From the NCBI GenBank assembly GCA_013387215.1, contig WARW01000022.1, forward strand, positions 238,417 through 302,416: 64,000 nucleotides of DNA, given 5' to 3'. The notes beneath the pieces are model-generated. The model saw nothing but the letters and a program-made list of their open reading frames with translations, was not told where the DNA came from and did not search any database. Shown here piece after piece: positions 1,239 through 16,176 of the stretch. The position numbers and the translations under genes were made by a program. The DNA comes from Patescibacteria group bacterium (GTDB lineage Bacteria > Patescibacteriota > Microgenomatia > UBA12405). Position 1 is the stretch's first letter. Every line of letters begins with the position of its first letter.

Positions 1239-1263
1239 GCTGTATTAGTATGGACAAAAAAGC

Positions 1264-1746
1264 TTACCAACGCAAGTGGGCAAAGGCTTTATTAGCTTCA
1301 GCCATTCTTTCGACTTCCATTCTTTTAGTAATAGCTGTACCTTCATTGTTGATAGCAGCAATTAATTCTGAGGCAAGTTTTTGGGCAAAAGAATGAAATT
1401 GTTTATTGGCTTTGGCGCGAGAAGCGTTGATTAACCATCTGATAGCTAAAGAATTTTGTCGATGTCCACGGACAGGGGTTGGAACTTGATAAACAGCTCC
1501 ACCAATGCGGCGAGGTCTGACTTCAACTTTTGGTTTGATATTATCAAGAGCTTTTTCAAGAGTAACAACAACGTCATCTTGTGGATATTCTTTTTTAAGA
1601 ATCTCTAAAGCATCATAAACCTGCTTTTCAGCAGCACCACGTTTACCATCTTTCATGGTAGCAGTGATAATTTTAGTGATAATAACTTGATTGTAAAGTG
1701 TATCAGGATTTACTTCTCTGATTTTACTGGTTCCTTTTCTGGACAT
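1264..1746 (-). CDS. rpsG: 30S ribosomal protein S7
   Basis: 160 aa. C-terminal ...KRMEVERMAEANKAFAHLRW and overall S7 conservation. It sits downstream of rpsL. Confidence 0.95.
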   Translation of the reverse strand: MSRKGTSKIREVNPDTLYNQVIITKIITATMKDGKRGAAEKQVYDALEILKKEYPQDDVVVTLEKALDNIKPKVEVRPRRIGGAVYQVPTPVRGHRQNSLAIRWLINASRAKANKQFHSFAQKLASELIAAINNEGTAITKRMEVERMAEANKAFAHLRW

Positions 1747-1775
1747 AGTTTATAGTTTAGTTTAAAAGTTAATGA

Positions 1776-2198
1776 TTAGGCAGTTTTTGCGCTAGGTCTT
1801 TTAGCACCGTATTTACTGCGTGATTGTAATCTGCCTGCAACTGCACCAGCATCATATTTACCACGGATAACGTGATAACGGACACCTGGTAAATCTCGGA
1901 CACGACCTCCACGAATAGAGACGATACTGTGTTCAGCAAGATTGTGGCCAATACCCGGAATATAAGCAGTGACTAAATTGCGGTTACTAAGTTTAACTTT
2001 AGCAACTTTACGTAAAGCTGAATGTGGCTTTTTTGGAGTCATTGTTTTTACAGCAACAACGACACCTTTTTTAACAGGATTAATGGTTCCAATAAGTCTA
2101 TTTTTAATACTATTGAAGTTTTTGCGCAAAGCACCGGTCTTGAGTTTAATGACTCTGGTTTTGCGACCTTTTTTAATTAATTGATTGAATGTTGGCAT
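1776..2198 (-). CDS. rpsL: 30S ribosomal protein S12, with an internal insertion of about 12 aa
   Basis: [13 protein letters not shown]..., [33 protein letters not shown]. It is 140 aa against the usual ~124. Confidence 0.95.
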
Positions 2199-2202
2199 TT
2201 TT

Positions 2203-5200
2203 TTATTTTACAATTTGATTTTTACCCACAGGTATTAATCGTCCGATAATAACATTTTCTTTAAGACCAATCAAGCCGTCTACTTCCGCAAGCAAGGATG
2301 CTTCGGTTAAAACGCTAGTTGTCTGTTGGAATGAAGCAGCAGATAACCATGAGCCAGTGGTTAAAGCAGATTGGATAAGACCCAATAAGACTTTTTTACC
2401 TTTAGCTGGTTTACCACCTTCAGATTTTGCCTTTTCATTGGCTGCATTGTATACAGCAGCAGTGGTGATTTGGCCATATAAGAAGTTGGTGTCACCTGGA
2501 TCTTCAACTTTAATCTTGTCGCTCATTTCTTTAACGATAACTTCAAGATGTTTGTCGTGGATACCGATACCCTGAGATTCGTAAACAGCTTGGATGCTGT
2601 TGATAAGGTATTTTTGAGCAGCTTCGATACTCTTAACATCCATGATTTCTCGAACATCGAGAGAACCTGAACAAAGTTGAGTACCTTGAGCAACTAAATC
2701 ACCATCGGAAACTAAGAGGGTAACGTTGGATGGTAAAAGATAAGTAATAGTTTTGGTGGTATTAGACTCATCTTTACCAGTGAGTTTAATTTCGTAACCA
2801 TCAATAGATTCTTTTACTTTGATCTTTCCACTGATTTCTGCTAATGGAGAAGGTAATTTTGGAGTTCGAATTTCGAATAATTCCTGAACACGTGGTAAAC
2901 CTTGAGTAACGTCGACGCCGACGACACCTCCGGTGTGCTTGGTACGAAGAGTTAACTGGGTACCTGGTTCACCAATAGATTGAGCAGCGATAACACCGAC
3001 TGGAACTCCGATTTCAACTAATTTTCGGGTGGAAAGATCCCAACCGTAACATTGTTGACAAAGACCGGTTTCAGCAGCACAGGTTAAAGCAGATCGGATG
3101 TCTACAGAAGTAATATTGTGAGATTCGATATCAGCAACAACATTGTTGTCTAATAAAGTACCTTTGGCAAATAAAACTTTCTTGGTTTTGGCATCAATAA
3201 TATCGTTAGCTAAAACTCGGCCTAAAATTCGGCGAGAGAAATAGCGTTCTCTTCCCTTTTCATTAGCTTCAACAGTAATGAATTTTTTGGTGCCACAGTC
3301 ATCTTGTCTAATAATAGAAATATGAGCAGCATCAACAAGTCTTCGGGTTAAGTAACCTGCATCAGCGGTTTTCAAAGCGGTATCGGCCAAACCTTTTCTG
3401 GTTCCTCTAGCACCGGTAACGTATTCGAAAACTGACAAACCTTCACGGAAGTTTGATTTGGTTGGAAGTTGAACGATTCGACCAGTTGGATCGACCATTA
3501 AACCTCTCATACCAGAAAGCTGTTTGATTTGATCTTTAGATGCACGCTTGATACCTGCAGCAGAAACGATACGGATTGGAGAATCGATATCGAGAGTTGC
3601 CCAAGTTTTTTCAGCGATTTCTTCGGTTTTTTCCATCCAAACAGATTGACTTAATCTCTTCTTTTCTTCATTGGAAATTAATCCCATTTTGTAGTTATCT
3701 TCAATTTCAGCAACTTGCTTGTTTGCACCAGCAATAATACTGTCTTTTTCTTGTAAGTGACCACAATCTGCCATAGATAAGGAAAGACCAGAAATAGTGA
3801 AACCTTTGAAACCAATGTCTTTTAAGGAATCAATAAGTTTTACAGTCTTAACTCTTCCAGCAATTTCAAGTGATTTAACGACTAAATCGTTAACAGCCTT
3901 GGAACCAGCCATAGATTCGTTAACAAAACTGAATTCTTTTGGAAGGATTTTATTGAACCAAATTCGGCCGTAAGTGGTTTTGATTAATTTACCGTCCATT
4001 CTGACGACAATTAATTCACGTAAACCGATTTTCTTAGCTTCGTAAGCAAGTTCAACTTCTTTAACGTCTGAGAAAATAGATAAACCTTCAAAGCTTTCGG
4101 ATTTTTCTTTTTCAAGATCTTCAGATTGAACAGAAGTGATGTAATAACATCCGACTGCCATTTCTTGGGTAGGAACTGAAACTGGAGAACCGTCAGCAGG
4201 TTTAAGTAAGTTTCGAGAAGGCAACATTAATTTCTTGGCTTCTTTTTGTGAAGCTTCAGATAATGGTAAATGGACACCCATTTGATCTCCGTCGAAATCG
4301 GCGTTGAAACCTTTACAGACACATGGATGTAGTCTGATGGCTAAACCGTCAACCAAAATTGGTTTAAATGCTTGAATTGAGAGTTTGTGAAGGGTTGGAG
4401 CGCGGTTTAATAAGACGTGACTGTCTTTGGTAACCTTTTCCAAAATATCGTAAACCTCGTTAGCTCGGTGATCAATTAAGTTTTTAGCAGATTTGATGTT
4501 TGGAGCAATGCCAGTAGACATTAATTCACGCAAAACAAATGGTCTGTAGATTTCGAGAGCAATTTCTTTTGGTAAACCGACTTGGTTAAGTTTAAGTTCT
4601 GGACCGACAACGATAACAGAACGACCTGAGTAATCGACACGTTTACCTAAAAGATTTCGTCGGAAACGACCTTTCTTACCTCTTAAGAGATCAGAAAGGG
4701 ATCTTGGAGTTCTTTTAGTACTTTTTCTTTTATTCTTAGCACTCTTTTGAGCATCAATTAAAATGTCGACAGATTCCTGCAACATTCTTTTTTCGTTGCG
4801 CAAAATAATTTCTGGAGCACCAAGTTTAAGAAGTTTCTTTAAACGGTTATTACGATTAATTAATCTTCGATATAAATCATTTAAATCAGAAGTGGCAAAT
4901 CGGCCGCCAGTAAGTTGGACCATAGGTCGTAAATCTGGTGGAATAACTGGAACATTGGTCATGATCATCCATTCTGGATGGATTTCATTTTCAATCATTC
5001 CATTCAAAATTCTGATCTTGTACATGATTTTCTTTTTCTTGAGTTTGGAAGTGGTTTTAGCTAATTCTTTCTTAAGATTTTTGACAGTTTCTTTAAGATC
5101 GATTTTCTTTAAAACTTCAACTAAAGCTTCAGCACCCATTTTAGCTTCGAAGAAAAGATCTGCCTTAAATTGGGAAAGATAGAAAGATTCTTCATCAGAA

Positions 5201-5937
5201 ATAGTTGATAAAACTTGGAGAGAAGAAATCTTGTCTTCCAAATATTTAATCAAACTTTCAATTCTATTCTTTTCAGTAGAAGCTTTATTTTCAATCTTTT
5301 GGATATCTTGCTTTAATTTAACATCGCGTTCTTCTTTGGCAATGTTAAGTTGGTCTTTATTTTTGATTTTTTCTTTAAGATCAGCTTTTTCTTTTTCGAT
5401 TTGAGCAGTTTTGCTTTCGATGTTCTTTTTAGAATCGATATCAATTTGTTCTTGTCGTTTTTTAGAATTTTCTCTGAGGTTTTCTAATGCTTCTTTTCTT
5501 TTTTCGTCGTTAACTGAAGTAACTAAATACTTAGTGAAATAAACGACAGATTCCAAATCTTTTTGCGGAACGTCAAGAATGACGCCAACTGGAGATGGAG
5601 TATTTCGCAAATACCAAAGATGAGTTACAGGAGCAGCAAGGGTAATGTGACCCATTCTTTCGCGTCGGACTTTAGAAGTGGTGACTTCAACTCCACAGCG
5701 ATCACAAACTACACCCTTAAATCTGATTTTCTTATATTTTCCACAGTAACATTCATAATCACGAGATGGTCCGAAGATCTTTTCACAGAAAAGACCGTCT
5801 TTTTCTGGTCTCCAGCTTCGATAATTGATAGTTTCTGGTTTAAGAACTTCACCGTGAGACCAAGCTAAGATCTCTTCTGGAGAAGCTAATTTAATTTGCA
5901 AACCGGTAAAATCGATCATGTTTTTGAATTTAAGCAT
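2203..5937 (-). CDS. rpoC: DNA-directed RNA polymerase beta' subunit
   Basis: 1244 aa with the NADFDGDQM catalytic motif and beta' conservation throughout. The good SD AAGGAGG is upstream. Confidence 0.97.
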
Positions 5938-8900
5938 TAATTTTCCTCCTTAACATCTTCTAACGATTCCTCGTCCTGTGAGGATACAGTCATATCTTTA
6001 AGATCAGTTTCTTCAACAACAGACTCCTGATCTGTTATGACGTCTGCAGGAACGATACCTTCACCAGCAGTTACGCCTTCAGTGTCAAAAATTCCTTCTT
6101 TAACACCAACAGGTGAGATATCGAGAGCTAAACCTGCCAATTCTTTGGTTAAAACCTTGAATGATTCTGGAATAGCTGGTTCTGGAATTGCCAACCCTTT
6201 GATGATGGATTGGAAGGCGTGGGTGCGACCTTCAATATCATCGGATTTAATGGTTAACATTTCTTGTAATGTGTGTGCAGCACGATGTGCTTCAAGCGCC
6301 CAAACTTCCATTTCTCCAAGTCTCTGACCTCCCATTCTGGCTTTACCGCCGAGTGGCTGTTGAGTAACTAAAGAGTATGGACCGGTAGAACGAGCATGAA
6401 CTTTATCATCGACCATGTGGACAAGTTTCAAAATGTATCCAATACCGACAACTGATTCTTGATCATAAGCTTCACCGGTTCGACCATCGTAAAGTTGAAC
6501 TTTACCATTAGCTTTGAAACCAGCTTTTTCTAGTTCATCGCCAATCTCTTTTTCAGAATATTTTTCGAAAACTGGAACAGCATATTTTTTATCGAGAACA
6601 TAACCTGCGTGAGCAAGAGTAGTTTCCAAAATCTGGCCCAAATTCATACGGGAAATAACAGAAATTGGAGACATGATTAAGTCCATTGGAGTGCCATCAG
6701 CAAGTCGTGGCATGTCATATTGAGGCATGATTCGGCAGATAACACCCTTGTTTCCGTGGCGTCCGGCGATTTTATCACCTTCTTGAATACGTCGGATTTG
6801 AGCAACATAGACTTTAACAACTTTGTTGACACCTGGATCAAGTTCATCACCTTTATCTTTATCAAGAGTATCGACTTTGATAACGACACCGCCTTCGCCG
6901 TTTGGAATACGAAGTGAAGTATCTTTAACTTCACGAGCTTTTTCACCGAAAATAGCGCGTAAAAGTCTTTCTTCTGCAGATAATTCTTTTTCACCACGAG
7001 GTTCAACTTTACCGACAAGAATATCGTTTGGACCGACAGTGGCGCCGATCATGACAATACCGTCATCAGTAAGTTTAGCTAATTCAGTTTCAGAAACATT
7101 TGGAATATCTTTAGTTAATTCTTCAGAACCAAGTTTGGTTTCGACGACTTGAGCTTGATATTCGTAAATTTGGATATTAGTTAAGATATCTTCTTTTACT
7201 AAACGATCAGAAATTAAGAATGAATCTTCGTAAGTTAAACCGTCAATTGAAGCGTAAGCAACTAAAAGATTTCGACCAATTGAAAGTTCACCACCATCAG
7301 TGGATGGACCATCAATTAATAAATCACCAACTTTTACAACATCACCGACTTTTACAACTGCTTTTTGGTTGTAACAAGTACCGTATGGTGAAGTTCGGAT
7401 GAATTTAGTAATGAAATAGGTTTCAGTTTTATCTTTATTGCTGATTTCACTATTTTCACTAACTTCAGATTCTAATTTTTTATCTAAAGTAACAACGATT
7501 TTAGAACCATCAACATAAGAAACTTTACCAGCATGGTTAGCCAATACAGTTCTGCCCATAGATGAGGCAATAGCTGATTCCATTCCAGTTCCAACATATG
7601 GAGATTCTGGAGCAATTAAAGGAACAGCTTGAGTCTGCATGTGGGAGCCCATCAATGCGCGGGTAGCGTCGTCGTGGTCAACAAAAGGAATCATGGATGC
7701 AGAAGCACCAACGATTTCATTTGGAACTAAATCGATATATTCAACTTGTTCAATTGGACCTTCAATAAATTCACCTTGATAACGAATTGGAACCCATTCT
7801 TGATTAGTGATACCTTTTTCATCAAATTTGATACCTAAATGAGTGATTGGATGGACATATTCATCCTCAGCATCCATATAGAAGAAATCATCAGAAATTT
7901 TGTAGCCACCTTTAACTTTTTCGAGTTTTCGGAAAGGAGCTTCAATGAAGCCGTATTTGTTTACTTTTGCATATAAAGCAAGGTAAGTAACTAAACCGAT
8001 GTTTGGACCTTCTGGAGATCTAACAACGTCGATACGACCGTATTGTGAACCGTGTACGTCGCGGATAGAGAAAGCTGCACGCTCTCTGGTTAAACCGCCG
8101 ACACCGACAACAGTGACTCTTCGTAATAAATCAAGTTCAGCTAATGGATTAGTTTGATCCAAAATAGCGGAAAGTTGGTTAGATCGGAAGAAAGTGTTTA
8201 AAGCAGAAATCAATGGTTGAGGATTGATCATTTGAGACGGAGTTGGTTTTTCTTTGGTAGAAATTAAACTCATTCTTTCTTTGACCATTCTTTCGAATCT
8301 GGCTAAAGCAGGGCGAATAGCGATTTGAGAAACGATTTCGCCGCAGCGTCGTAAACGTCGGTTAGCAAGTGAATCGATATCATCAAGTCTGGTTGCTTCA
8401 CCTTTTTGGAGTTGGATTAAGTATTTAACAGTAGCGATTAAGTCTTCTTTCTTTAAAACCCAATTTTCTTTATTAGCATCATCAAATTTAAAACCGAATT
8501 TTTTATCAATTTTGTAGCGACCAACGTTACCTAATTCGTATGTTCTTAAATCAAAAAATCTTTCATTGAAGAATTTTTCTGCATTTTCAAGAACAACAGG
8601 TTCGCCTGGTCGAAGCTTTCGATAGAATTCGAGCATTGCTTCTTCTGGAGTTTTAGAAATGTCAGCAGCAATGGTGTGATTAAAATAGTCACCGAATTCA
8701 GCAACTAATTGTTTATCACCCATTTGGCAGGCAGCTCTTAAAATAATGGAAGCAGGAAATTTCTTTTTGCGATCAATACGAGCAAAAACAACGTCTTTTT
8801 TACCAACAAAGAATTCGAGCCATGAACCACGGACAGGTCTGATTTCAGCATTATAAAGGGTTTTACCAGTAGAAGGATCATTTTCACCAGTGAAATAAAC

Positions 8901-9311
8901 GCCAGGAGATCGGACTAATTGATTAATAATACCTCTTTCAATACCGTTAACAAGGAAAGTTCCCTGATCGGTCATAGTAGGCAAATTCAAGAAGAAAACA
9001 TCTTCTTCACGGATATCACCAGTTCTTTTGTTGGTTAACTTAGCTTTAATTCTGACCGGAATGGTGTAATTCAACCCTTTTCTTTTGGCAATATCTGGAG
9101 TGACGCTGATCGGATCGAAGGTTAATTCTCCAAGTTTTAATTCCCAGTTATTACCGGTGTAATCACTGATTGGAGAAATTGATTGTATCGTGTCTTTTAG
9201 TTCGCGTTCGAGGAAGTCTTTCCAAGATTCTTTTTGAATTTGTATAAGATCTAATTTAGGAAGGTTAGGGTAAACTTTACCCCATTGTATTCTTTTTGCG
9301 GAACCCATCAA
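5937..9311 (-). CDS. rpoB: DNA-directed RNA polymerase beta subunit
   Basis: 1124 aa with canonical beta-subunit blocks. It overlaps the rpoC start by 1 nt (ATGA). Confidence 0.97.
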   Translation of the reverse strand: MMGSAKRIQWGKVYPNLPKLDLIQIQKESWKDFLERELKDTIQSISPISDYTGNNWELKLGELTFDPISVTPDIAKRKGLNYTIPVRIKAKLTNKRTGDIREEDVFFLNLPTMTDQGTFLVNGIERGIINQLVRSPGVYFTGENDPSTGKTLYNAEIRPVRGSWLEFFVGKKDVVFARIDRKKKFPASIILRAACQMGDKQLVAEFGDYFNHTIAADISKTPEEAMLEFYRKLRPGEPVVLENAEKFFNERFFDLRTYELGNVGRYKIDKKFGFKFDDANKENWVLKKEDLIATVKYLIQLQKGEATRLDDIDSLANRRLRRCGEIVSQIAIRPALARFERMVKERMSLISTKEKPTPSQMINPQPLISALNTFFRSNQLSAILDQTNPLAELDLLRRVTVVGVGGLTRERAAFSIRDVHGSQYGRIDVVRSPEGPNIGLVTYLALYAKVNKYGFIEAPFRKLEKVKGGYKISDDFFYMDAEDEYVHPITHLGIKFDEKGITNQEWVPIRYQGEFIEGPIEQVEYIDLVPNEIVGASASMIPFVDHDDATRALMGSHMQTQAVPLIAPESPYVGTGMESAIASSMGRTVLANHAGKVSYVDGSKIVVTLDKKLESEVSENSEISNKDKTETYFITKFIRTSPYGTCYNQKAVVKVGDVVKVGDLLIDGPSTDGGELSIGRNLLVAYASIDGLTYEDSFLISDRLVKEDILTNIQIYEYQAQVVETKLGSEELTKDIPNVSETELAKLTDDGIVMIGATVGPNDILVGKVEPRGEKELSAEERLLRAIFGEKAREVKDTSLRIPNGEGGVVIKVDTLDKDKGDELDPGVNKVVKVYVAQIRRIQEGDKIAGRHGNKGVICRIMPQYDMPRLADGTPMDLIMSPISVISRMNLGQILETTLAHAGYVLDKKYAVPVFEKYSEKEIGDELEKAGFKANGKVQLYDGRTGEAYDQESVVGIGYILKLVHMVDDKVHARSTGPYSLVTQQPLGGKARMGGQRLGEMEVWALEAHRAAHTLQEMLTIKSDDIEGRTHAFQSIIKGLAIPEPAIPESFKVLTKELAGLALDISPVGVKEGIFDTEGVTAGEGIVPADVITDQESVVEETDLKDMTVSSQDEESLEDVKEEN

Positions 9312-9371
9312 AGTTTTTTAAATTTTTAAAAACACGGACGCAACGAGACCAAAGCGCGCCGAATGTGTTGT

Positions 9372-9400
9372 ATTATAGTATGTTCGTCAAAGCGGGTCAA
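9372..9400 (-). promoter_or_regulatory. Sigma70-type promoter for rpoBC: -35 TTGACC, 17-nt spacer, -10 TATAAT
   Basis: On the minus strand, TTGACC is the revcomp of 9395-9400 and TATAAT is the revcomp of 9372-9377. The spacer is exactly 17 nt, and the start codon lies about 60 nt downstream. The element overlaps the stop of the upstream gene. Confidence 0.4.
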
Positions 9401-10314
9401 TAAGTAGTTTGTGATGAATTTGTTGCCGTATTAGTTGGGGTTAAAGTTTTTGCCGAAGAACTGGCTGTTGGAGTTACAGTTTTAGTAGATTTTGCCGAAA
9501 CTGTGGCTAAACAAGTTCTACTAGTGCAAGTAATACTGCCATTGGTGCAGCTGCAAGCGTTGCAGCCGTCGCTAGCGACAAAATTTTGACCTTCATTATA
9601 GTGTTTATCGTTTAAGTCACAACCGGCCCCAGTTTGAACTGCAGTGGATGGAGTGGAAGTTATCTCTGGAGTACTGGTTTTTGTTAAATTTGTGACTGGC
9701 TTACTGCTAAAATTAGTATAGGCAAGAGCTGAGGCTACGCAGAGAAAAAGAATTAGTGAAAAAATGAAAAATATTTTTGGTATAGGACTTGCTTTTGGTG
9801 TTGGTGGCTCCACAGGAGGAACAAAGTCGGAAATTGGAGGAAGATCTGATTTAAAAGCAGGTTCAGGTTGAGGAGCTGGTGTTGGTTCAATAACTGGCTC
9901 TGGTTCAGGTATGGTTTCAACTGCTGGAGTGGAAATGGGTGCAGATTCAACAACAGGGGCTGGTGCGGCCTCAACTACTGGCGGATTGGTAACTGGAGTC
10001 AACACCTCTGCTTCATTTTCATTTTCATCAACTTCAATATTTTCATTCAAAACTAATTGTGGAGGAGGAGTTTCGAGAGACAAGACAGGCTCTTGAACTT
10101 TTGGCTGTTCAATTGGAGTTATAGGCGTTTCAGATACTGCTGGAGTTCCTTGGGTCACTGGAGAAACTGGATTTTCTGCTGGTTCTGGCGGGGCATTTTT
10201 AATCTCTTGAGCGTATTTATCTAAAATAGCTTGATATTGCTTATTGGCATCAATATTTTGATCTTCTTGATCACCTGGGACAGGATTAATATTATTCATA
10301 AATAAATATCTCAT
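9397..10314 (-). CDS. Proline-rich membrane protein with a C-terminal extracellular Cys-rich domain
   Basis: 305 aa. It has long P/E/V-rich low-complexity stretches, one TM helix (IFFIFSLILFLCVASALAY) and a C-terminal 8-Cys module (GAGCDLN...CNACSCTNGSITCTSRTC). Confidence 0.6.
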   Translation of the reverse strand: MRYLFMNNINPVPGDQEDQNIDANKQYQAILDKYAQEIKNAPPEPAENPVSPVTQGTPAVSETPITPIEQPKVQEPVLSLETPPPQLVLNENIEVDENENEAEVLTPVTNPPVVEAAPAPVVESAPISTPAVETIPEPEPVIEPTPAPQPEPAFKSDLPPISDFVPPVEPPTPKASPIPKIFFIFSLILFLCVASALAYTNFSSKPVTNLTKTSTPEITSTPSTAVQTGAGCDLNDKHYNEGQNFVASDGCNACSCTNGSITCTSRTCLATVSAKSTKTVTPTASSSAKTLTPTNTATNSSQTTY

Positions 10315-10360
10315 TTAATATTTATGCCGTCAATAAATACAAGGGAAATTAGTATAGTTT

Positions 10361-11527
10361 ATGAATGATCTGATAAAATTGGCAATGCAAAAAACCGGTA
10401 GCGTGTTTATTAAAACCTTTGGCTGTATTCAAAATACGGCAGATTCAGAAAGAATCAAAGCTTTCTATTGGGACATCGGATACAAAGAAGTTGATGATTG
10501 GAAAAAGGCCGATTTAGTGGTCATAAATACTTGTATTGTTAGGGAATCGGCTGAAAACAGAGCTTATGGGCTTATTAATGAAATTGATAAGATCAACCGA
10601 AAATCTTCAAAAAAAATCGAAATTATTGTGACCGGGTGTTTGGTCGGCAAGGCTAATTTAGATAAAACCGGTAAAAAGATAAATAAATTGAATCGTGATT
10701 TTCCAGAAGTATCGGAATTTTTACCTATAGAAAAAATTTCTTTCCAAATTAAACCAATTCGAGATTTTAAAAATATTGCCCTGATTCCAATTAGCAGCGG
10801 CTGCAGCAATTTTTGCTCATACTGTATTGTCCCCTATGCCCGCGGACCAGAAATATCAAGAAAATTTGAAGATATTTTGACTGAAGTAGACGAAGCAATT
10901 AAAAATGGTTTTAAGAGTGTTGTATTAATTGGCCAAAACGTTAATTCGTATGGTTCTGATTTAGTCAAAGAAAATGAATATATTCTTTTAGACGGCAAAA
11001 AGATTTTACCAGTGATGGTGAAAAGCATGGGAAAGGCAAGAATACCAACACTTTTCCCATATCTTTTGGAAGAAATTGCAAAGAAAAATTTAGAAAAAAT
11101 AAGTTTTGTCAGCAGTAATCCTTGGGATTTTTCCGATGAACTTATTGAAGTAATCGCTAAGTATCCAAATATTGATAAATTACTGCATTTGCCGATTCAA
11201 TCGGGAGATGATGAAATCCTAAAAAGGATGAACCGAGGTTATACAACTGATGAATATTTAAAATTAGTCGAAAAAATCCGAGGTAAAGTAAAAGATGTTC
11301 AATTCAGCACCGATATTATTATCGGTTTTCCAGGCGAAGATGAAGCGTCATTTAACAGAACTGTGGAAGTATGCAAAAAGGCAAAATTCCAAATCGGATA
11401 TTTAAATAAATATTCCCCAAGAAAAGGAACTCTTTCCGCACAAATATACGAAAATGATGTGCCTCAAAGTGAAAAGAAAAGAAGATGGACTGTGTTAAAC
11501 GATTTAATAAATAAGAAAATTAATTAG
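10361..11527 (+). CDS. MiaB/RimO-family radical-SAM methylthiotransferase. At 388 aa it is short and probably lacks the TRAM domain.
   Basis: The N-terminal MTTase domain shows FGCIQNTADSE. The radical-SAM motif is SSGCSNFCSYCIVPYARG, a CxxxCxxC. Confidence 0.85.
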   Translation: MNDLIKLAMQKTGSVFIKTFGCIQNTADSERIKAFYWDIGYKEVDDWKKADLVVINTCIVRESAENRAYGLINEIDKINRKSSKKIEIIVTGCLVGKANLDKTGKKINKLNRDFPEVSEFLPIEKISFQIKPIRDFKNIALIPISSGCSNFCSYCIVPYARGPEISRKFEDILTEVDEAIKNGFKSVVLIGQNVNSYGSDLVKENEYILLDGKKILPVMVKSMGKARIPTLFPYLLEEIAKKNLEKISFVSSNPWDFSDELIEVIAKYPNIDKLLHLPIQSGDDEILKRMNRGYTTDEYLKLVEKIRGKVKDVQFSTDIIIGFPGEDEASFNRTVEVCKKAKFQIGYLNKYSPRKGTLSAQIYENDVPQSEKKRRWTVLNDLINKKIN

Positions 11528-11531
11528 AGTC

Positions 11532-11596
11532 TTATAGCGGAAAAGTGGCGGGTCCCCCAGAGGGGGGTAATTAATTTATTAAAACAGCACGCAGGT
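11532..11596. repeat. Repeat copy A, left boundary of cassette unit 1. It consists of an outer IR TAGCGGAAAAG, a GC hairpin GGGTCCCCCAGAGGGGGG and an inner IR AAAACAGCACGCAGGT.
   Basis: Seen directly. The outer IR (11535-11545) and inner IR (11581-11596) are exact reverse complements of 11968-11977 and 11945-11960. The GC hairpin followed by TAATT could also terminate the upstream MiaB-like gene. Confidence 0.7.
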
Positions 11597-11603
11597 CTAG
11601 AAG

Positions 11604-11945
11604 TTACAATAGAATGTTACTCCTAAGGTTTATGATCCTTAGTTTCGCGTCAGATGGGTACTCAAGGTTGACACTGTGGTCGCAAAGACTATTCACCGAT
11701 AAGGATACACACTGGTTGACTCTATATTTGTCTTGCATATCGACAATAGGGTCAAGACAGAGACTTTCCGTTCCCACAGACCCGTTGTACACACTCAGTC
11801 CTATTTTCCAACCTCTACTGGACCAATAATTGAATACCCTGCATTCTATTGTTTCCCCCTCGTCATTCTTGTACACCACGGTTGCATCTTTGCCCCCTTC
11901 GATATTAGTGTTCATCAAGTCCATGAGGCTCTCCTTTGCTTGCAA
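11604..11945 (-). CDS. Hypothetical protein, the cargo of IR-bounded unit 1. The region is GC-richer than the flanks.
   Basis: 113-aa ORF with a TTG start overlapping the inner IR; an alternative ATG lies at residue 8. There is no TM helix. Local GC is clearly higher than the genome. Confidence 0.4.
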   Translation of the reverse strand: MQAKESLMDLMNTNIEGGKDATVVYKNDEGETIECRVFNYWSSRGWKIGLSVYNGSVGTESLCLDPIVDMQDKYRVNQCVSLSVNSLCDHSVNLEYPSDAKLRIINLRSNILL

Positions 11946-11977
11946 CCTGCGTGCTGTTTTTTCCGTATTTTCCGCTA
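11945..11977. repeat. Repeat copy A', right boundary of unit 1: the inverted partner of copy A, without the GC hairpin
   Basis: ACCTGCGTGCTGTTTT at 11945-11960 and TTTTCCGCTA at 11968-11977 are the reverse complements of the copy A segments. Confidence 0.7.
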
Positions 11978-12120
11978 TTTAAAAGAACTGTTTGCATATT
12001 CTAGGAATTAAAGGGCAGCTAAAGCCATTATAGAATAATGCAACTATCATTTTATGAATAATTTTTATGATGTATATTACAAACATGTAAGAATACGGTA
12101 AGATAGGGATTTAGTATCAA

Positions 12121-12180
12121 CATAGCGAAAAGAGGGTCCCCAGAAGGGGTGTAATTTAACCTTAAGCACGGCACGCAGAC
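12121..12180. repeat. Repeat copy B, left boundary of unit 2. It consists of an outer IR CATAGCGAAAAG, a GC hairpin GGGTCCCCAGAAGGGG and an inner IR GCACGGCACGCAGAC.
   Basis: It has the same tripartite architecture as copy A and a related sequence. The shared cores are ATAGCG(G)AAAAG, GGGTCCCC-AGA-GGGG-TAATT and GCACGCAG. Confidence 0.7.
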
Positions 12181-12186
12181 AAAAAA

Positions 12187-12669
12187 TCAGTTAAGTCTTT
12201 CAACCAGACAACTTCCTTCCTGAGGATAAGTAAACAAAACAGTCTTATCCTCCATGGATAAGGTGATAACATAGAAATCCACCTTGAAGTCGGATGACGG
12301 GTTGACAACTTTTTTTTGGGTCACAGTTGATTCATCAACAGCATCATAAGAGATAAGCCAGTCGTTTCCAACTGAAGTCTCAGGGAAATTGGCCAGGCCA
12401 ATCATATACTTTCCATTTTTGTCTGATTCGACTTTAGCTTTATAGCCGGGAGGCACTTTGCAAGTACCATTGGTTACAGGGGCTGGCTTAGTGACGATTC
12501 TAGTTGCTTGGATGTAATGCTGCTGAGTTGGAACCGAGGTTGGATTGGATTCATAAACCATGGCTGAAGCGGTGCGGGCTGTTTTAGGGCTTGGGTTCAT
12601 GAGCAGTAAAAATGCTGCAACAACTGCCGTGATAAATACGAAGATGGGAACCAGAAACTTAGCTTTCAT
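12187..12669 (-). CDS. Secreted or membrane-anchored hypothetical protein, the cargo of IR-bounded unit 2
   Basis: 160 aa with an N-terminal signal/TM segment (MKAKFLVPIFVFITAVVAAFLLL). GC is higher than in the flanking genome. Confidence 0.55.
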   Translation of the reverse strand: MKAKFLVPIFVFITAVVAAFLLLMNPSPKTARTASAMVYESNPTSVPTQQHYIQATRIVTKPAPVTNGTCKVPPGYKAKVESDKNGKYMIGLANFPETSVGNDWLISYDAVDESTVTQKKVVNPSSDFKVDFYVITLSMEDKTVLFTYPQEGSCLVERLN

Positions 12670-12712
12670 TAGTCCAGAATCCTTTCTATTTATGGGTTAG
12701 ATTACTTGAATA

Positions 12713-12804
12713 GTCTGCGTGCCGTGCCGGAAGAGAAAACAAAAGATAAGGATTTATCCTCTATTTTCTCTTTCGGAAGGCCGCAAACTGGTCTTTTCGC
12801 TATG
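12713..12804. repeat. Repeat copy B', right boundary of unit 2. It consists of an inner IR GTCTGCGTGCCGTGC, an imperfect hairpin of about 22 bp and an outer IR CTTTTCGCTATG.
   Basis: The inner and outer segments are exact reverse complements of copy B at 12166-12180 and 12121-12132. The internal hairpin is CCGGAAGAGAAAA...TTTTCTCTTTCGG. Confidence 0.7.
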
Positions 12805-12924
12805 TTAAAGAACGGATAATAAGCATGATTTAGGGCATAAAATCCTAAATTGGCTTATATGATATATTGTAACATATATTACAGGATAGTCAATATATAA
12901 ACAGTTGGTTTAAATTCAAAATAA

Positions 12925-12985
12925 TAGCGGAAAGAATGGACTATTTTAGTATATTTGCTGGCGAACGGAAGTCACATTTTTCCGC
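12925..12985. repeat. Solo compact copy of the same repeat family, TAGCGGAAAG...TTTTCCGCC. It may be an empty site or a degenerate element.
   Basis: The outer-IR motif (revcomp match GCGGAAA/TTTCCGC) recurs with only about 40 nt between the arms and no cargo ORF. Confidence 0.5.
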
Positions 12986-13124
12986 CATTTATATTGTTTT
13001 TAGCCTTAAATCCATTTGGTGGCCGCTTGTGACCAGAATGAAGAGGTATCAAACAATTCAGTCTAGAAAGAAAAATATAGGGTTAGATTAAGATTGAGCA
13101 ATAATTCAGTAAGATTAAGTTATC

Positions 13125-14006
13125 TTAGATACTTAAAGAAGATGCAAATGAAAGGCTTGTGTGATCGTTAGGTTTTAGTTGCCTAATAAATATTTTCTCT
13201 GATTTTAAGTTTTTCTTTACTGTTGAATTAGTTACTGTTCCGAATTTTATATGATAATTAATTTTATTGATTTCACAAAATTTGGAAACTATTTCAGCAC
13301 ATTCATTATAAAAATTCTTGTAATCCCTATACTCCGCGACAGCTGAGTTATAATTTAACCTTCCAAAAACAATTTTATCTACAAAGGAAACTTTTTCTAA
13401 TATTTCTAATAAATTTTGTTTAACTAAATTTGGTGTTGGATATGGTTCCATACTTACCCAAGTCTTTAATCCTGACTCATGAAGTCTTTTTAAAGTTTTT
13501 ATTCTTTTTAGAAATGGTGATGCTTTCGGTTCAAATATGGATCTAAATTTTTCATTCAAAGAAACTATTGTGATTCCGTATTCATTTTTATTACTATATT
13601 TTTTTGTATCTATTAAATCTTTTGGATAAACACCTTTTGTTAAAACAGTACATCGGATTTTATCTTTGTTCAGTCTTGCAATTACTTTTAACGTCATTTC
13701 TTCAACCTCTGGCTGTTCATACATAAACGGATCAGTACTAAAACAAAGGTGTACAAATTTAATCTTATCTTTAAGTTTTGGTATTTCTTTATCTAATAAC
13801 TCAATTGCATTTGCAACAATTTTTGGTTTAATCCAATCTTGATAATTTTTAATTACACCACATCTCTTCTTCATCATCATTGCATAGCAAGGATACATAC
13901 ACCCATGAGAACATCCTTCAACATGATTCAAGCAATAATCTGCATATTCGACTCCACTTTTATAAAGTAAAGATTTTCTGTAAATCTTCTGCAATTTCTG
14001 TTTCAC
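13125..14006 (-). CDS. Radical-SAM-fold protein of the SplB/COG1533 type with an atypical three-Cys motif, Cx3Cx3C in place of Cx3Cx2C
   Basis: N-terminal KSLLYKSGVEYADYCLNHVEGCSHGCMYPCYA parallels the COG1533 block ...NPYxGCxHxCxYCYA with one extra residue before the third Cys. The downstream blocks ITIVSLNEKF...EPKASPFLKRIKTLKRLHESGLKTWVSMEPYPTP fit the SPL-family core. The gene is very AT-rich. Confidence 0.65.
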   Translation of the reverse strand: MKQKLQKIYRKSLLYKSGVEYADYCLNHVEGCSHGCMYPCYAMMMKKRCGVIKNYQDWIKPKIVANAIELLDKEIPKLKDKIKFVHLCFSTDPFMYEQPEVEEMTLKVIARLNKDKIRCTVLTKGVYPKDLIDTKKYSNKNEYGITIVSLNEKFRSIFEPKASPFLKRIKTLKRLHESGLKTWVSMEPYPTPNLVKQNLLEILEKVSFVDKIVFGRLNYNSAVAEYRDYKNFYNECAEIVSKFCEINKINYHIKFGTVTNSTVKKNLKSEKIFIRQLKPNDHTSLSFASSLSI

Positions 14007-14085
14007 TAGATTAGTTTAGACAATTTTAATTAAAAGGTCAAAGGTGTAATATATAACTCATTAAATAAGTTATTATTATTACGAC

Positions 14086-15222
14086 ATGACTATAAAGAAA
14101 CCTAAAGATTGGCCTAATGTTTCATATAAAACTTGGAGATATGAAAAACAGACAAAAATGAAACACCAAGTTCTAGATAATTATTTTCCGCAATGGTTAC
14201 AAATTCTTAATAAATATAACAAAAAATTAAATTATATTGATGGTTTTGGAGGATTAGGAGCCTATCACACAAAAAATGATATTGAAAATAATGCCTACAA
14301 CTCAAAATCATTTGGTTCTCCGATTTTAGCAATAAAGACTATTAATAGGCTTATAAGTGAAAATAAAGTTACAAAAGTGAATGTTTTAATTATAGATAAG
14401 GATAAAAATAATATTGCCAACATTCAAAAGATTTTATTCGAGGAAAATATTTCTCCTTTAAATTATGTAAATTTTATTAATGGAGATTTTGATGTAAAAA
14501 TTAATGAGTTTTTAGATAAACTGGACAATATTGCTCCCACCTTCTTTCTTATTGATCCATTTGGTTATTCTCAAATTAAGATTAGTACGATTAAAAGAAT
14601 CATGGAGTTGGAAAAATCGGAGATCTTTTTAAATTTTATGTACAATGCAATACAAAGATGGATTAAAAAACCTGCATTAGAGGCAAGATTTAATGAACTA
14701 TTTGGTTGTGAAGATTGGAAACAATATGCAGATGAACCAACAAAAGCTAAAGAAGAAAAACTTGTAGCTTTGTTTAAAAAGGAATGTGAAACATTCGCTG
14801 AATATGTTACTCCATTTAGGTTGAGAAACCCAAAAAGCGATAGGCCTTATTATTATCTTTTTCATTTATGCAATGATGATACTGGTTGTGTAAAAATGCG
14901 AGCTAGTTTTGCTCGTTTTAACAAAGGGTTTACAGATTATTGCGGATCCGACCAACAAATGTGTTTATTTGATAAAAACTCAACAAAAAAACAAGTCTGT
15001 GTAGAAAAAATTATTAAATATTTTTCCGGACAAAATATAAGTTATAAAGAATTTCGAAAACAAATGTTAAAGCTGTCTGATTATCATACAGAAAGGGATA
15101 TTATTAGGACTTTACAACATTTAGAAAAAAGAAAATCTATTACAATAGCTCCTTCAGATGGAAGAAAAAGAAAAACTGGAATATTAAAAACTGATATTAT
15201 TAAAATTCCACATTTATCTTAA
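14086..15222 (+). CDS. Methyltransferase-fold-like partner protein, resembling the three-Cys-motif partner family TcmP
   Basis: 378 aa. IDGFGGLGAY resembles SAM-binding motif I (FxGxG). FLIDPFGY resembles the D/NPPY/F motif IV of amino-MTases. The C-terminal region is Cys-containing. The gene is divergently paired with the three-Cys rSAM-like gene. Family assignment is from memory of the TcmP description and needs an HMM check. Confidence 0.55.
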   Translation: MTIKKPKDWPNVSYKTWRYEKQTKMKHQVLDNYFPQWLQILNKYNKKLNYIDGFGGLGAYHTKNDIENNAYNSKSFGSPILAIKTINRLISENKVTKVNVLIIDKDKNNIANIQKILFEENISPLNYVNFINGDFDVKINEFLDKLDNIAPTFFLIDPFGYSQIKISTIKRIMELEKSEIFLNFMYNAIQRWIKKPALEARFNELFGCEDWKQYADEPTKAKEEKLVALFKKECETFAEYVTPFRLRNPKSDRPYYYLFHLCNDDTGCVKMRASFARFNKGFTDYCGSDQQMCLFDKNSTKKQVCVEKIIKYFSGQNISYKEFRKQMLKLSDYHTERDIIRTLQHLEKRKSITIAPSDGRKRKTGILKTDIIKIPHLS

Positions 15223-16176
15223 ATATTTTTGGATGTTTTGATTGTGCTCGGCGAGGGTTTTGGCATAATGCATGGTACCGTCGGTGCCAGTGAGATAGAA
15301 AATGTAGTCAGATTTGATTGGATGATAGGCAGCATAGAAGGAGTTATAGCCAGGGTTGCAAATTGGTTTAGGCGGGATACCAGTATTTTTATAGGTGTTG
15401 TAGGGAGAAACTATATCAAGATCGTTTGAAGTTACCTGCTGCCAATAAGTGTTTGGTTTGGTTTTGGAATCACGAGCATATTGAACGGTGGCATCTAGCT
15501 GAAGCGGCATGTTTTTGGAAAGTCGATTTAAAAGAATTCCAGCAATCATTTGTTTAGACTGTAAAGTCTTCCCTTCTCTTTCCAAAAGAGAGGCAAAAAT
15601 AACAATCTGGCGATCATTCAGCTGAGTGTTGGTGGCTTCGCTTTTAGCTTGAGAAATTTTATTGGCAAAATTTTTATTGATGACATCTAAAATTTGACTA
15701 ACATCAAAATATTGAGGCACTAAATAACTGTCAGGATAAAGATAACCTTCAAGAGATTGCGCTTGTTTTGCAAAATCTTTGTAGGTGAAATTGATATCGT
15801 CCGGGAAAAGGTCAGCGAACTCTTCAAGACGGGTGCCGTCTTTGATTTTAAGCCAATAATCGTGACTGCCTCCTTTTATGAGTTTGGCAATGATATCCGG
15901 GGTACTCATAGAAGGAGAGAGGCGATAATTTCCTGACTTTAATTTTTTATTGTCACCTGTATAAAAGGTATAAGCAATAAAAGAATATTTATCACGAATT
16001 AAATTATTTTTTACTAGATTGTCGGTAATGGTTTCAATTTTGTCACCATCTTTTACGACAAATATTTTTGCCTTAGATTCGGTTGATAATGGTTTTAGAT
16101 TTGAGTAAACATACACAAATCCACCAAAAGCTGCCAATACTACTATCAACAAAAATGCTAGTAAAACTTTTTTCAT
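15214..16176 (-). CDS. mltG: Endolytic murein transglycosylase MltG/YceG
   Basis: YceG-like domain. The track ORF (15214..16362) runs upstream through the neighbouring gene. The likely true start is the Met of MKKVLLAFLLIVVLAAFGG, the TM anchor, at 16176. Confidence 0.8.
   Translation of the reverse strand: MKKVLLAFLLIVVLAAFGGFVYVYSNLKPLSTESKAKIFVVKDGDKIETITDNLVKNNLIRDKYSFIAYTFYTGDNKKLKSGNYRLSPSMSTPDIIAKLIKGGSHDYWLKIKDGTRLEEFADLFPDDINFTYKDFAKQAQSLEGYLYPDSYLVPQYFDVSQILDVINKNFANKISQAKSEATNTQLNDRQIVIFASLLEREGKTLQSKQMIAGILLNRLSKNMPLQLDATVQYARDSKTKPNTYWQQVTSNDLDIVSPYNTYKNTGIPPKPICNPGYNSFYAAYHPIKSDYIFYLTGTDGTMHYAKTLAEHNQNIQKYLR

Follow-up and report, generated by a model that had tools for sequence, protein, structure and literature searches.

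A divergent, AT-rich gene pair between miaB-like and mltG genes

[quoted passage not shown] Both ORFs of the initial annotation were found where it had placed them, translation confirmed the three motifs that it had quoted (the cluster loop of the first protein and methyltransferase motifs I and IV of the second), and its description of the flanks was accurate, including two small ORFs at 11.6 to 12.8 kb enclosed by perfect inverted repeats. Both ORFs are real genes and not chance reading frames: full-length homologs of each number in the hundreds to thousands. The NCBI start for the radical-SAM gene is a TTG at 13994, four codons further in, which yields a protein of 289 aa. A suspicion that the window's tcmP was missing from public annotation was rejected: the cluster representative is a 50-aa fragment.

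Table 1. Features of the gene pair and its flanks (positions in the window)
Feature	Position	Strand	Basis or remark
MiaB-like gene (UPF0004 + Radical_SAM)	10361-11527		Flank of island
SPL-clan radical-SAM gene	13125..14006	(-)	ORF; 293 aa from GTG
Predicted [4Fe-4S]-binding loop GCSHGCMYPCY (C32-x3-C36-x3-C40; inserted Pro39)	13884..13916	(-)	Translation
Divergent intergenic spacer, AT-rich, 79 bp	14007..14085	.	Sequence
tcmP gene (three-Cys-motif partner protein)	14086..15222	(+)	ORF; 378 aa
Methyltransferase motif I, SAM-binding loop IDGFGGLGAY (D52-x-F54-x-G56-x-G58)	14236..14265	(+)	Translation
Methyltransferase motif IV, catalytic, DPPY-like FLIDPFGY (D157-P158-F159-G160)	14545..14568	(+)	Translation
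TcmP C-terminal winged-helix domain, ~residues 296-375	14971..15210	(+)	AF2 secondary structure
MltG/YceG gene	15214-16176		Flank of island

The pair is markedly AT-rich, as had been noted: its GC content is 27.3% versus 35.6% for the window. This is below all 620 sliding 2.1-kb windows (standard deviation, 2.4%; ~3.4 standard deviations under the mean) and makes the pair the most AT-rich 2 kb of the window. A search for direct or inverted repeats around the pair itself found none, so no integration boundaries were identified, and Rfam and tRNA scans across 9 to 18 kb gave no matches. The spacer presumably holds a bidirectional promoter; in a promoter scan, promoter-like matches within it did not exceed those in shuffled sequence. 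The pair of the closest relative (L081) is likewise head to head. The pair is missing at the syntenic loci of two relatives (L106 and L107), and members from Patescibacteria, DPANN archaea, Omnitrophota, and Nitrospirota are 59 to 73% identical. On these sequence grounds, the gene pair is horizontally acquired and mobile.

The radical-SAM protein and its predicted Cx3Cx3C cluster loop

The 293-aa protein matched Pfam Radical_SAM (PF04055) over residues 27 to 204 with 45.0 bits, above the GA of 29.5. It has more than 7,600 homologs (clusters at 90% identity) that are 63 to 73% identical, and homologs are labeled "DNA repair photolyase" by JGI. The family-invariant residues C32, H34, C36, C40, D92, R168, and P188 are all kept in the window protein. 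Ninety-six positions are at least 97% identical between phyla, which indicates strong purifying selection on the active site. A single-sequence search of PDB sequences with this protein gave no match; a family profile was required to reach SPL, which was then the sole PDB match (E = 1.4e-6). In an AF2 model of P0205, a natural fusion whose radical-SAM domain is 60% identical to the window protein, this domain best matched the structures of SPL, HydE, BlsE, and PFL-AE, and SPL was the best Foldseek match. By way of this fusion homolog, a partial (beta/alpha)6 TIM barrel is predicted for the window protein.

The profile and Foldseek results agree with the SPL-like character given to the protein in the initial annotation. 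Likeness to SplB (PDB 4FHC) lies in the position of the cluster loop and in the TK, EPG, and Arg motifs; the two differ in overall sequence (~14 to 15% identity) and in the cluster motif, which is Cx3Cx2C in SPL. The SPL-related NCBIfam model PA0069 gave 56 bits (cutoff, 360), hence the protein is kin to SPL at clan level and no SPL ortholog, as far as sequence comparison goes. Three further models also fell short of their thresholds: Rv2578c (41.7 bits versus 430), radical SAM mobile pair protein B (TIGR04470; 40.2 bits versus 410), and DUF5131/phage Gp37-Gp68 (PF07505; 20.9 bits versus a GA of 28.9).

That SPL is the only solved relative, with common TK, EPG, and Arg motifs, favors the reading that the radical-SAM protein is an SPL-like DNA-repair lyase that reverses a lesion of the thymine-dimer type, helped by TcmP in recognizing it. 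So does position 88, a Cys or Ser that aligns one column off the catalytic C140 of SPL. Close relatives with the canonical motif, as well as DUF5131 proteins, occur solo in phage genomes, where such proteins could repair densely packaged DNA. We nevertheless consider this reading very unlikely. Besides the PA0069 score, SPL is a repair enzyme of spore formers that works without a partner, whereas the window protein has an obligate methyltransferase-like one. That partner retains the complete signature of methyltransferase catalysis, superfluous in a lesion sensor, and its hypervariability and the restriction-modification (R-M), prophage, and plasmid context described below fit poorly with repair.

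The cluster motif does not have the canonical CX3CX2C spacing. Alignment with sister proteins and SPL (SPL loop, GCMGHCHY-CY) confirmed a true one-residue lengthening by a Pro insertion: all 37 insertion-type sequences have Pro39, versus a gap in 18 of 18 canonical relatives. Cx3Cx3C is kept in 119 of 120 close homologs and in 84 of 107 divergent representatives. By these alignments, most members of a very large family have it, which makes it a family trait and not a peculiarity of the window gene. Canonical Cx3Cx2C is retained by sisters up to ~53% identical. The insertion clade conserves its core as well as the canonical sisters do, namely the Cys triad, the aromatic residue that precedes the third Cys, D92, T123-K124, E159-P160, R168, and E187-P188.

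Radical-SAM chemistry or related chemistry is supported by other Cys spacings, for example in ThiC and HmdB. Our literature search found no paper on a real CX3CX3C radical-SAM cluster motif; apparent "CX3CX3C" matches were rejected as a likely NifB typo and a motif in substrate peptides. All radical-SAM motif variants cataloged in PMC9477430 retain a terminal CX2C, and binding of a cluster and SAM by the Cx3Cx3C loop is a prediction from the motif. The same catalog and the lack of a published precedent could mean that the Pro insertion disabled radical-SAM chemistry, leaving a scaffold for zinc or a non-radical Fe-S cluster, or else a regulator of TcmP that binds SAM, with TcmP alone being catalytic. 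We give this very little credence: the Cys triad and the other core residues show no loss of conservation relative to canonical sisters, the near-identity of 96 positions between phyla points the same way, and the spacings of ThiC and HmdB are compatible with activity.

TcmP and its pairing with the radical-SAM protein

The 378-aa protein matched the TcmP model TIGR04474 with 176.7 bits (E = 8.5e-52; cutoff, 53) over profile positions 2 to 259 of 263, and it is encoded beside a three-Cys protein, head to head with the gene for the Cx3Cx3C protein. Its assignment to TcmP in the initial annotation is thereby upheld. Of the HMM comparisons suggested there, those with TIGR04474 and Radical_SAM were positive, whereas the curated COG1533 models (PA0069 and Rv2578c) failed and the DNA amino-methyltransferase Pfams N6_N4_Mtase (PF01555) and N6_Mtase (PF02384) gave no match at E values up to 0.1. 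The two quoted amino-methyltransferase-type signatures proved to be conserved. At ~22% identity, TcmPs still share motif I, the acidic residue ending beta-2, motif IV (DP[FY]), and K26. D52, F54, G56, and G58 are 94 to 98% conserved in 64 TcmPs with just ~22% overall identity, D157 (100%) and P158 (98%) are conserved across divergent TcmPs, and among close homologs D157, P158, and G160 do not vary.

PDB sequence searches with TcmP, as a single sequence or a profile, returned no methyltransferase, and its apparent kinship is visible by fold comparison only. The predicted fold is nearest to the amino-methyltransferases of the RlmJ family (PDB 6QE5 and 2OO3) and Trm1 (PDB 3AXT), which have no sequence-level relationship to TcmP; a BFVD fold comparison returned generic methyltransferases only. 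In the AF2 model, a winged-helix pattern follows the core (H298-313, E317-319, H320-330, H336-348, E353-355, and E371-373). Pfam GMT-wHTH matched weakly there (19.8 bits, under the GA of 27), and many shorter TcmPs (263 to 320 aa) have no winged helix. RlmJ, which makes m6A2030 in 23S rRNA, and Trm1, which makes m2,2G26, are stand-alone housekeeping RNA enzymes, whereas TcmP has the added winged helix and a radical-SAM partner and is mobile. That these nearest structural relatives methylate RNA is a point against a DNA substrate.

TcmP adjoins a radical-SAM gene in 66 of the 72 genome loci with room (92%, by HMMs), in agreement with the co-occurrence given in the initial annotation; in 64 of these loci, tcmP directly precedes the radical-SAM gene in the same orientation, and the two often overlap. 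The usual order elsewhere is thus tcmP and then the radical-SAM gene on one strand, from which the divergent layout in the window differs. A tblastn search with one TcmP had found a partner in 24 of 80 loci and was dropped as a measure of co-occurrence once the HMM counts were available. The pairing may go with the inserted residue: TcmP accompanies 9 of 10 viral and the same 66 of 72 genomic insertion-type genes versus none of the 7 canonical sisters whose context could be read. This count leaves out P0268, as its contig of 1.35 kb does not reach far enough. The Halopiger protein, canonical but more distant, is an exception with regard to TcmP pairing. No unrelated characterized family claimed TcmP, co-occurrence with three-Cys proteins is present, and the extra Cys-loop residue is not found in SPL itself, so none of the outcomes named in the initial annotation as adverse to it arose.

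At least 15 natural fusions of TcmP and the radical-SAM protein exist, 13 among the TcmP matches plus P0243 and P0246, and all have the same motif. The AF2 model of P0205 has a pTM of 0.90 and a high-confidence inter-domain segment, with a geometry based on ~11 paired fusion sequences. This suggests that the separate proteins of the window would form a physical complex. The two subunits differ in evolutionary rate: median identity across bacteria and archaea is 64% for the radical-SAM subunit versus 22% for TcmP, which fits a conserved catalytic subunit combined with a variable specificity subunit.

Genomic context and candidate functions

R-M genes are recurrent neighbors of the pair (raw counts of loci). 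Type IIG Eco57I-like genes occur at 11 loci, at 7 of which they lie upstream of tcmP in the same direction, including 4 where they directly adjoin it; Type III Mod occurs at 7 loci, HsdR at 3, and D12 Dam at 1. The closest relative's pair is flanked by a Type ISP enzyme and an OLD nuclease, and the defense-island context of TcmP pairs also includes hna-type helicases. TcmP pairs are found on plasmids and in prophage-like cassettes with the order tcmP-tcmP-radical SAM-N6_N4 methylase. Many loci, the window included, have housekeeping neighbors only, a point against a DNA or conflict role.

The RlmJ/Trm1-like fold would agree with an RNA-modifying enzyme, in which a nucleotide of tRNA or rRNA is N-methylated, or put in place, by TcmP and its base is then hypermodified by the radical-SAM subunit. 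We regard this as unlikely. A patchy distribution, transfer across domains at 60 to 73% identity, anomalous GC content, and absence from relatives' syntenic loci are unlike a housekeeping RNA-modification gene, and the hypervariability of TcmP would be unexpected if the RNA site were fixed. Its genes form operon-like arrays with those of Type IIG, Type III, and N6_N4 DNA methylases, prophages and plasmids carry the pair, and SPL, the sole solved relative of the radical-SAM subunit, acts on double-stranded DNA.

Analogous pairs of TcmP and DUF5131 are included in PADLOC as PDC-M30 and PDC-M41 (TIGR04474 + PF07505), where they are unvalidated guilt-by-embedding defense candidates. The two kinds of pair have in common the TcmP subunit (TIGR04474 as above; PDC-M30A in the window, E = 7.7e-26), a three-Cys partner of ~260 to 290 aa from the SPL/DUF5131/MJ0683 clan (RadicalSAM.org Megacluster-5), and an organization as adjacent two-gene modules on mobile DNA. 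They differ in the partner. True DUF5131 proteins have a C-x6-C-x2-C motif and match PDC-M30B and PDC-M41B at ~330 to 346 bits, whereas the window protein has Cx3Cx3C and matches neither. PDC-M30, which takes detection of both A and B, was thus not found in the window, where A matched and B was absent; PADLOC has no model for this radical-SAM family and detected the TcmP half alone. Natural fusions are a further difference, being known for the window version, which is dominant in uncultivated Patescibacteria, DPANN, Omnitrophota, and Nitrospirota and not in Proteobacteria and Actinobacteria. The TcmP partner in cultured organisms is usually DUF5131, another branch of the same clan. The literature on TcmP/TIGR04474, DUF5131/PF07505, PDC-M30/M41, PF22560, GMT-wHTH, and TIGR04470/1 consists of annotation-table mentions and counts only, and, as the initial annotation had supposed, no searchable paper gives a biochemical function for TcmP.

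An analogy can be drawn with Type III and Type IIG R-M, often neighbors of the pair, in which a variable methyltransferase/specificity subunit is combined with a conserved effector, sometimes in one polypeptide. The pair differs from these systems in having no helicase or nuclease domain, and its effector would be a radical-SAM enzyme. Along these lines, the pair might be a restriction-like or abortive-infection effector and no self-marking system: TcmP would sense or mark DNA, and the radical-SAM subunit would damage unmarked or foreign DNA by H-abstraction from sugar or base or by crosslinking, much as Mod directs Res in Type III R-M. The asymmetric rates, Type IIG-style fusion, defense islands containing Type ISP, OLD, and hna-type helicases, and the PADLOC listing of analogous pairs are consistent with such an effector. 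PDC-M30 is also somewhat commoner in phage-resistant Pseudomonas aeruginosa (68.8% of 32 strains; PMC10855318), a weak and uncontrolled correlation. Solo canonical-motif relatives and DUF5131 proteins in phage genomes would be odd for a host-killing effector. No radical-SAM enzyme is known to act as a nuclease or in restriction, and overall we find this reading distinctly improbable.

The interpretation that we prefer, and to which we give an even chance, is that the two genes encode a single SAM-dependent enzyme of two subunits that moves horizontally, with DNA as its most likely substrate and a role in genetic conflict. TcmP would be an active class I amino-methyltransferase-type protein, with an RlmJ/Trm1-like core bearing motifs I to IV and a winged helix. 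This fast-evolving subunit would bind the target nucleic acid and select the site, probably flip out the base, and perhaps N-methylate it. The Cx3Cx3C partner would supply 5'-deoxyadenosyl-radical chemistry on the same target, most likely giving a covalent base modification or a lesion on unmarked DNA. The genomic context suggests an R-M-like or anti-phage function, as the initial annotation had proposed, in which the pair may serve self/non-self discrimination in conflicts among phage, plasmid, and host as a defense or anti-restriction module.

More tentatively, and with the balance tilting against it, TcmP and its three-Cys partner could represent a previously unrecognized class of DNA modification or restriction system built on radical-SAM chemistry. 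Such a system would be widespread among CPR bacteria and DPANN archaea. Its methyltransferase-fold subunit would pick the DNA site, and the SPL-like subunit would use a Cx3Cx3C-ligated cluster without precedent for new radical chemistry on the flipped-out base, leaving either an epigenetic mark of a new type or, on foreign DNA, a lesion.

The radical-SAM proteins form a very large, strongly conserved clade with a cluster-loop spacing absent from the PMC9477430 catalog, and their ~50% identical canonical sisters provide a natural experiment on how the geometry of the cluster loop tolerates an insertion. Together with TcmP, they make up a recurrent module of mobile elements and defense islands, of which current defense-finder models catch only the TcmP half. 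The fusions, the kept methyltransferase motifs, and the kinship with SPL make the hypothesis of a two-subunit DNA-modifying enzyme testable. If true, it would mean new chemistry for DNA epigenetics or phage defense, in a version dominant in Patescibacteria and DPANN, lineages whose defense repertoires are poorly known.

The gene pair and its insertion site

[quoted passage not shown] Translation confirmed the three motifs described for them, GCSHGCMYPCY in the rSAM protein and IDGFGGLGAY and FLIDPFGY in TcmP. Public annotation starts the rSAM gene at a TTG four codons downstream, giving 289 aa. The pair is as AT rich as had been claimed, with a GC content of 27.3% versus 35.6% for the window, below that of all 620 sliding 2.1-kb windows. 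The expected flanking genes were identified by Pfam as a MiaB-like gene (UPF0004 and Radical_SAM) on the left and genes for MltG/YceG, RuvX, and sortase on the right. As convergent genes, tcmP and mltG share 9 bp at their 3' ends. The mechanical call of mltG probably overextends the ORF, to 382 aa, since in the public call and in homologs translation begins at the Met that yields 320 aa.

Features of the gene pair, its flanks, and compared loci (window coordinates unless a contig is named)
Feature	Position	Strand	Remark
rSAM gene	13125-14006	-	293 aa from GTG
tcmP	14086-15222	+	378 aa
mltG, public call	15214-16176	-	320 aa
tcmP/mltG overlap	15214-15222		9 bp, convergent
Orphan ORF	11604-11945	-	113 aa
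Orphan ORF	12187-12669	-	160 aa
Inverted repeat 1	11581-11596 / 11945-11960		perfect
Inverted repeat 2	12119-12133 / 12792-12806		perfect
Inverted repeat 3	12166-12180 / 12713-12727		perfect
Hairpin	12727-12776		23 nt
Interval compared for synteny	11528-15213		window
Interval compared for synteny	7925-12612		contig L106
Interval compared for synteny	7967-12899		contig L107
Four-gene cassettes	~2950-8000 each		contigs L092-L099, prophage-like
TcmP and two rSAM paralogs	1329-3864		pHALXA02 (L089)
Helicase, Gp37/Gp68, and TcmP genes	1088-5251		pKLC102 (L091)

The two small ORFs between the MiaB-like gene and the pair had no match in a family search. They are bracketed by perfect 15-16-nt inverted repeats, one pair nested within another, and may be invertible or cassette-like elements. 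The left arms of repeats 1 and 3 have a common GCACGCAG core, and a hairpin lies nearby.

The MltG of the host is closest to that of Shapirobacteria-like Patescibacteria. Two relatives, L106 and L107 (MltG 69% and 61% identical), retain the sortase-RuvX-MltG block and the MiaB-like gene, and their MltG-to-MiaB interval contains no TcmP or rSAM homolog. There the relatives have other hypothetical ORFs and glmS; the window lacks glmS at this place and has the orphan ORFs with the TcmP pair. The interval is a variable hotspot in this lineage. The pair-less syntenic intervals and the GC anomaly together support horizontal acquisition of the pair into this hotspot. A search of the pair's boundaries for repeats or an integrase found none.

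Family assignment and catalytic signatures

The rSAM protein passes the Pfam Radical_SAM model (45 bits, GA 29.5) and fails every curated subfamily model, among them PA0069 (56 bits, cutoff 360), Rv2578c (42 bits, cutoff 430), rSAM mobile pair protein B (40 bits, cutoff 410), and DUF5131 (20.9 bits, cutoff 28.9). The SPL-like character ascribed to it held up: SPL was the sole match of the family profile in the whole PDB (E = 1.4e-6) and ranked top in a Foldseek search with the rSAM domain of a modelled homolog. The family motif gCsHgCkYPCy aligns to GCMGHCHY-CY of SPL, and the two have TK, EPG, and Arg motifs in common. The family is large and under strong constraint: of the 8,000 candidates scored, more than 7,600 (clusters at 90% identity) reached E ≤ 0.001, and 96 positions are at least 97% identical among 121 sequences.

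The cluster motif had been described as one residue longer than the canonical Cx3Cx2C, and a joint alignment located the difference at Pro39, present in 37/37 insertion-type sequences and replaced by a gap in 18/18 canonical ones. Cx3Cx3C is carried by 119 of 120 close homologs and by 84 of the 107 divergent 50%-identity representatives covering the region; the remaining 23, up to ~53% identical, have the canonical GCSHGCxYCYA. The motif is a trait of the family. In the joint alignment, C32, H34, C36, C40, D92, T123-K124, E159-P160, R168, and E187-P188 are conserved equally in both types. The window protein belongs to the SPL clan of radical-SAM enzymes, and its cluster loop is longer by the one inserted residue. 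Of the many variants in first spacing that the RadicalSAM.org paper lists, all keep CX2C; the paper assigns DUF5131 (CX6CX2C), SPL, and MJ0683-like proteins jointly to Megacluster-5 (PMC9477430). We found no description of a real CX3CX3C radical-SAM motif in the literature.

The 378-aa protein proved to be a TcmP, scoring 176.7 bits on NCBIfam TIGR04474 (cutoff 53), and it also matches the PADLOC models PDC-M30A and PDC-M41A. It matched no Pfam methyltransferase model, and the family profile found no methyltransferase among PDB sequences. Its predicted fold resembles RlmJ and Trm1, with conserved catalytic motifs; hundreds of further class I methyltransferases followed at lower scores. A winged-helix topology is seen in the C-terminal 80 residues, which match Pfam GMT-wHTH below threshold. 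Among 64 TcmPs from loci with the same partner family (~22% mutual identity), the surviving residues are a methyltransferase signature: motif I (D52-x-F54-x-G56-x-G58), an acidic residue (Asp or Glu) where beta-2 ends, and motif IV (D157-P158-[F/Y]), with K26 and G77-S78-P also retained. Survival of this signature at such divergence argues for a working SAM-dependent active site and not a scaffold; TcmP has the appearance of an active amino-methyltransferase.

Pairing, fusion, and genomic neighbourhoods

We fetched 80 genome loci via the rSAM protein (59-73% identity) from Patescibacteria, DPANN archaea, Omnitrophota, Nitrospirota, Desantisbacteria, and others. The anticipated co-occurrence of TcmP with three-Cys proteins was found in 66 of the 72 loci with room for a neighbouring gene: TcmP directly precedes the rSAM gene on the same strand in 64, often with an overlap, and lies downstream in 2. 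Divergent transcription, as in the window, is the minority arrangement; L081, the locus of the closest TcmP relative, also has it. Thirteen TcmP matches of 473-650 aa are natural fusions with TcmP N-terminal and rSAM C-terminal (11 complete, 631-650 aa), and all 12 spanning the motif carry Cx3Cx3C; two further fusions occur among the representatives. An AlphaFold model of one fusion (P0205, 648 residues; pLDDT 91.2, pTM 0.90) was built on a shallow paired alignment; its high-confidence inter-domain segment is compatible with the two domains being fixed relative to each other. TcmP and the rSAM protein are obligate partners and one functional unit. Across 63 loci and the window pair, median pairwise identity was 64% for the rSAM subunit versus 22% for TcmP, and the two were weakly correlated (Mantel r = 0.28). 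Residues 748-993 of P0244, a 1,002-aa protein of the representative library, form a Cx3Cx3C radical-SAM domain. Searches with Pfam, NCBIfam, PDB, and the TcmP HMM matched nothing in the ~750 residues before it, which include motifs resembling those of methyltransferases (...CLPGEEALE..., ...INLDYQG...) and may represent a second, unrecognised partner type.

The pair is mobile, and restriction-modification, prophage, and plasmid contexts are frequent. Apart from the pair, the neighbourhoods vary between loci. Genes that recur in them serve DNA methylation and restriction, an enrichment to be read as qualitative; by raw counts, these are Type IIG Eco57I/MmeI-like enzymes (11 loci), Type III Mod (7), Type I HsdR (3), and D12 Dam (1). 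Seven Type IIG genes lie upstream of tcmP and co-directional, four of them (L024, L034, L051, and L055) immediately adjacent or overlapping. L081 is adjoined by a Type ISP enzyme and an OLD-family nuclease, and many loci, the window included, have only housekeeping neighbours. On IMG/VR contigs, 9 of 10 insertion-type homologs lie within a cassette of tcmP, rSAM, and N6_N4 DNA methylase genes. In the prophage-like L092-L099, its order is long tcmP (~379 aa), short tcmP (~289 aa), rSAM, and methylase (709-735 aa); L101 has one TcmP. The annotated flanks are an Amidase_3 endolysin upstream (L093) and an adjacent Peptidase_M78 protein (L099). The two paralogs suggest a heteromeric specificity unit.

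Canonical-motif sisters (L082-L084, L086-L088, L102-L105) are 26-53% identical to the window protein. None of the seven with readable context (3 metagenomic and 4 viral contigs) has TcmP beside it; a fourth metagenomic relative (P0268), on a contig of only 1.35 kb, was left out. One metagenomic sister lies in an integrase-bearing element and one in a phage-like gene string, and that of L088 directly follows C5 and N6_N4 DNA methylases, with PAPS reductase and RusA nearby. In this small sample, pairing with TcmP seems to go along with the Pro insertion.

TcmP partners span several branches of one clan. Plasmids of Mycolicibacterium and Pseudomonas pair TcmP with a "phage Gp37/Gp68 family protein" (DUF5131, C-x6-C-x2-C), and Halopiger pairs it with a radical-SAM protein of canonical motif that has 29% identity to the window protein. 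On H. xanaduensis pHALXA02, two rSAM paralogs (349 and 448 aa), both canonical (GCRHGC[KE]FC), adjoin one TcmP, and a ThiF-family adenylyltransferase is encoded at a distance of a few genes. PADLOC PDC-M30 and PDC-M41 consist of exactly TcmP (A) and DUF5131 (B), and PADLOC has no model for the window rSAM family. PDC systems are "guilt-by-embedding" candidates, explicitly unvalidated, and the sets tested in later work included neither M30 nor M41 (PMC10855318, PMC12881386, PMC12988326). The tcmP of S. meliloti (SMa2243), itself not studied, is co-regulated with the defence gene hna (PMC12445080); Hna (SMa2245) is a validated defence helicase. On P. aeruginosa pKLC102, the gene directly preceding a Gp37/Gp68-TcmP pair encodes a DEAD/DEAH-box helicase, and the three genes may form a conserved arrangement.

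Proposed activity of the pair

We propose that TcmP and the rSAM protein would assemble into a complex in which TcmP selects and presents a nucleotide, possibly N-methylating it. The rSAM subunit would then act on the presented nucleotide by means of a 5'-deoxyadenosyl radical, formed at a [4Fe-4S] cluster that the Cx3Cx3C motif ligates. The substrate is more probably DNA, because SPL, the only solved relative of the rSAM protein, acts on double-stranded DNA, because TcmP has a winged helix, because DNA methylases and restriction enzymes are neighbours, and because the module is mobile and patchily distributed. RNA modification is the main rival, since RlmJ and Trm1 are RNA enzymes. A repair role, a restriction-like, damaging role, or a disabled rSAM cluster is also possible. 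In having a conserved effector and a variable partner, the pair resembles the Mod/Res logic of Type III systems.

TcmP was already known as a computationally defined family delimited by three-Cys pairing, as was the defence-candidate status of TcmP with DUF5131 in PADLOC. What is new is that in uncultivated lineages TcmP is mainly partnered by a distinct SPL-like family, whose Cx3Cx3C loop derives from a single Pro insertion and appears to be unreported. Also new are the natural TcmP-rSAM fusions, the predicted RlmJ/Trm1-like fold of TcmP with its conserved catalytic motifs, and the very different evolutionary rates of the two subunits.
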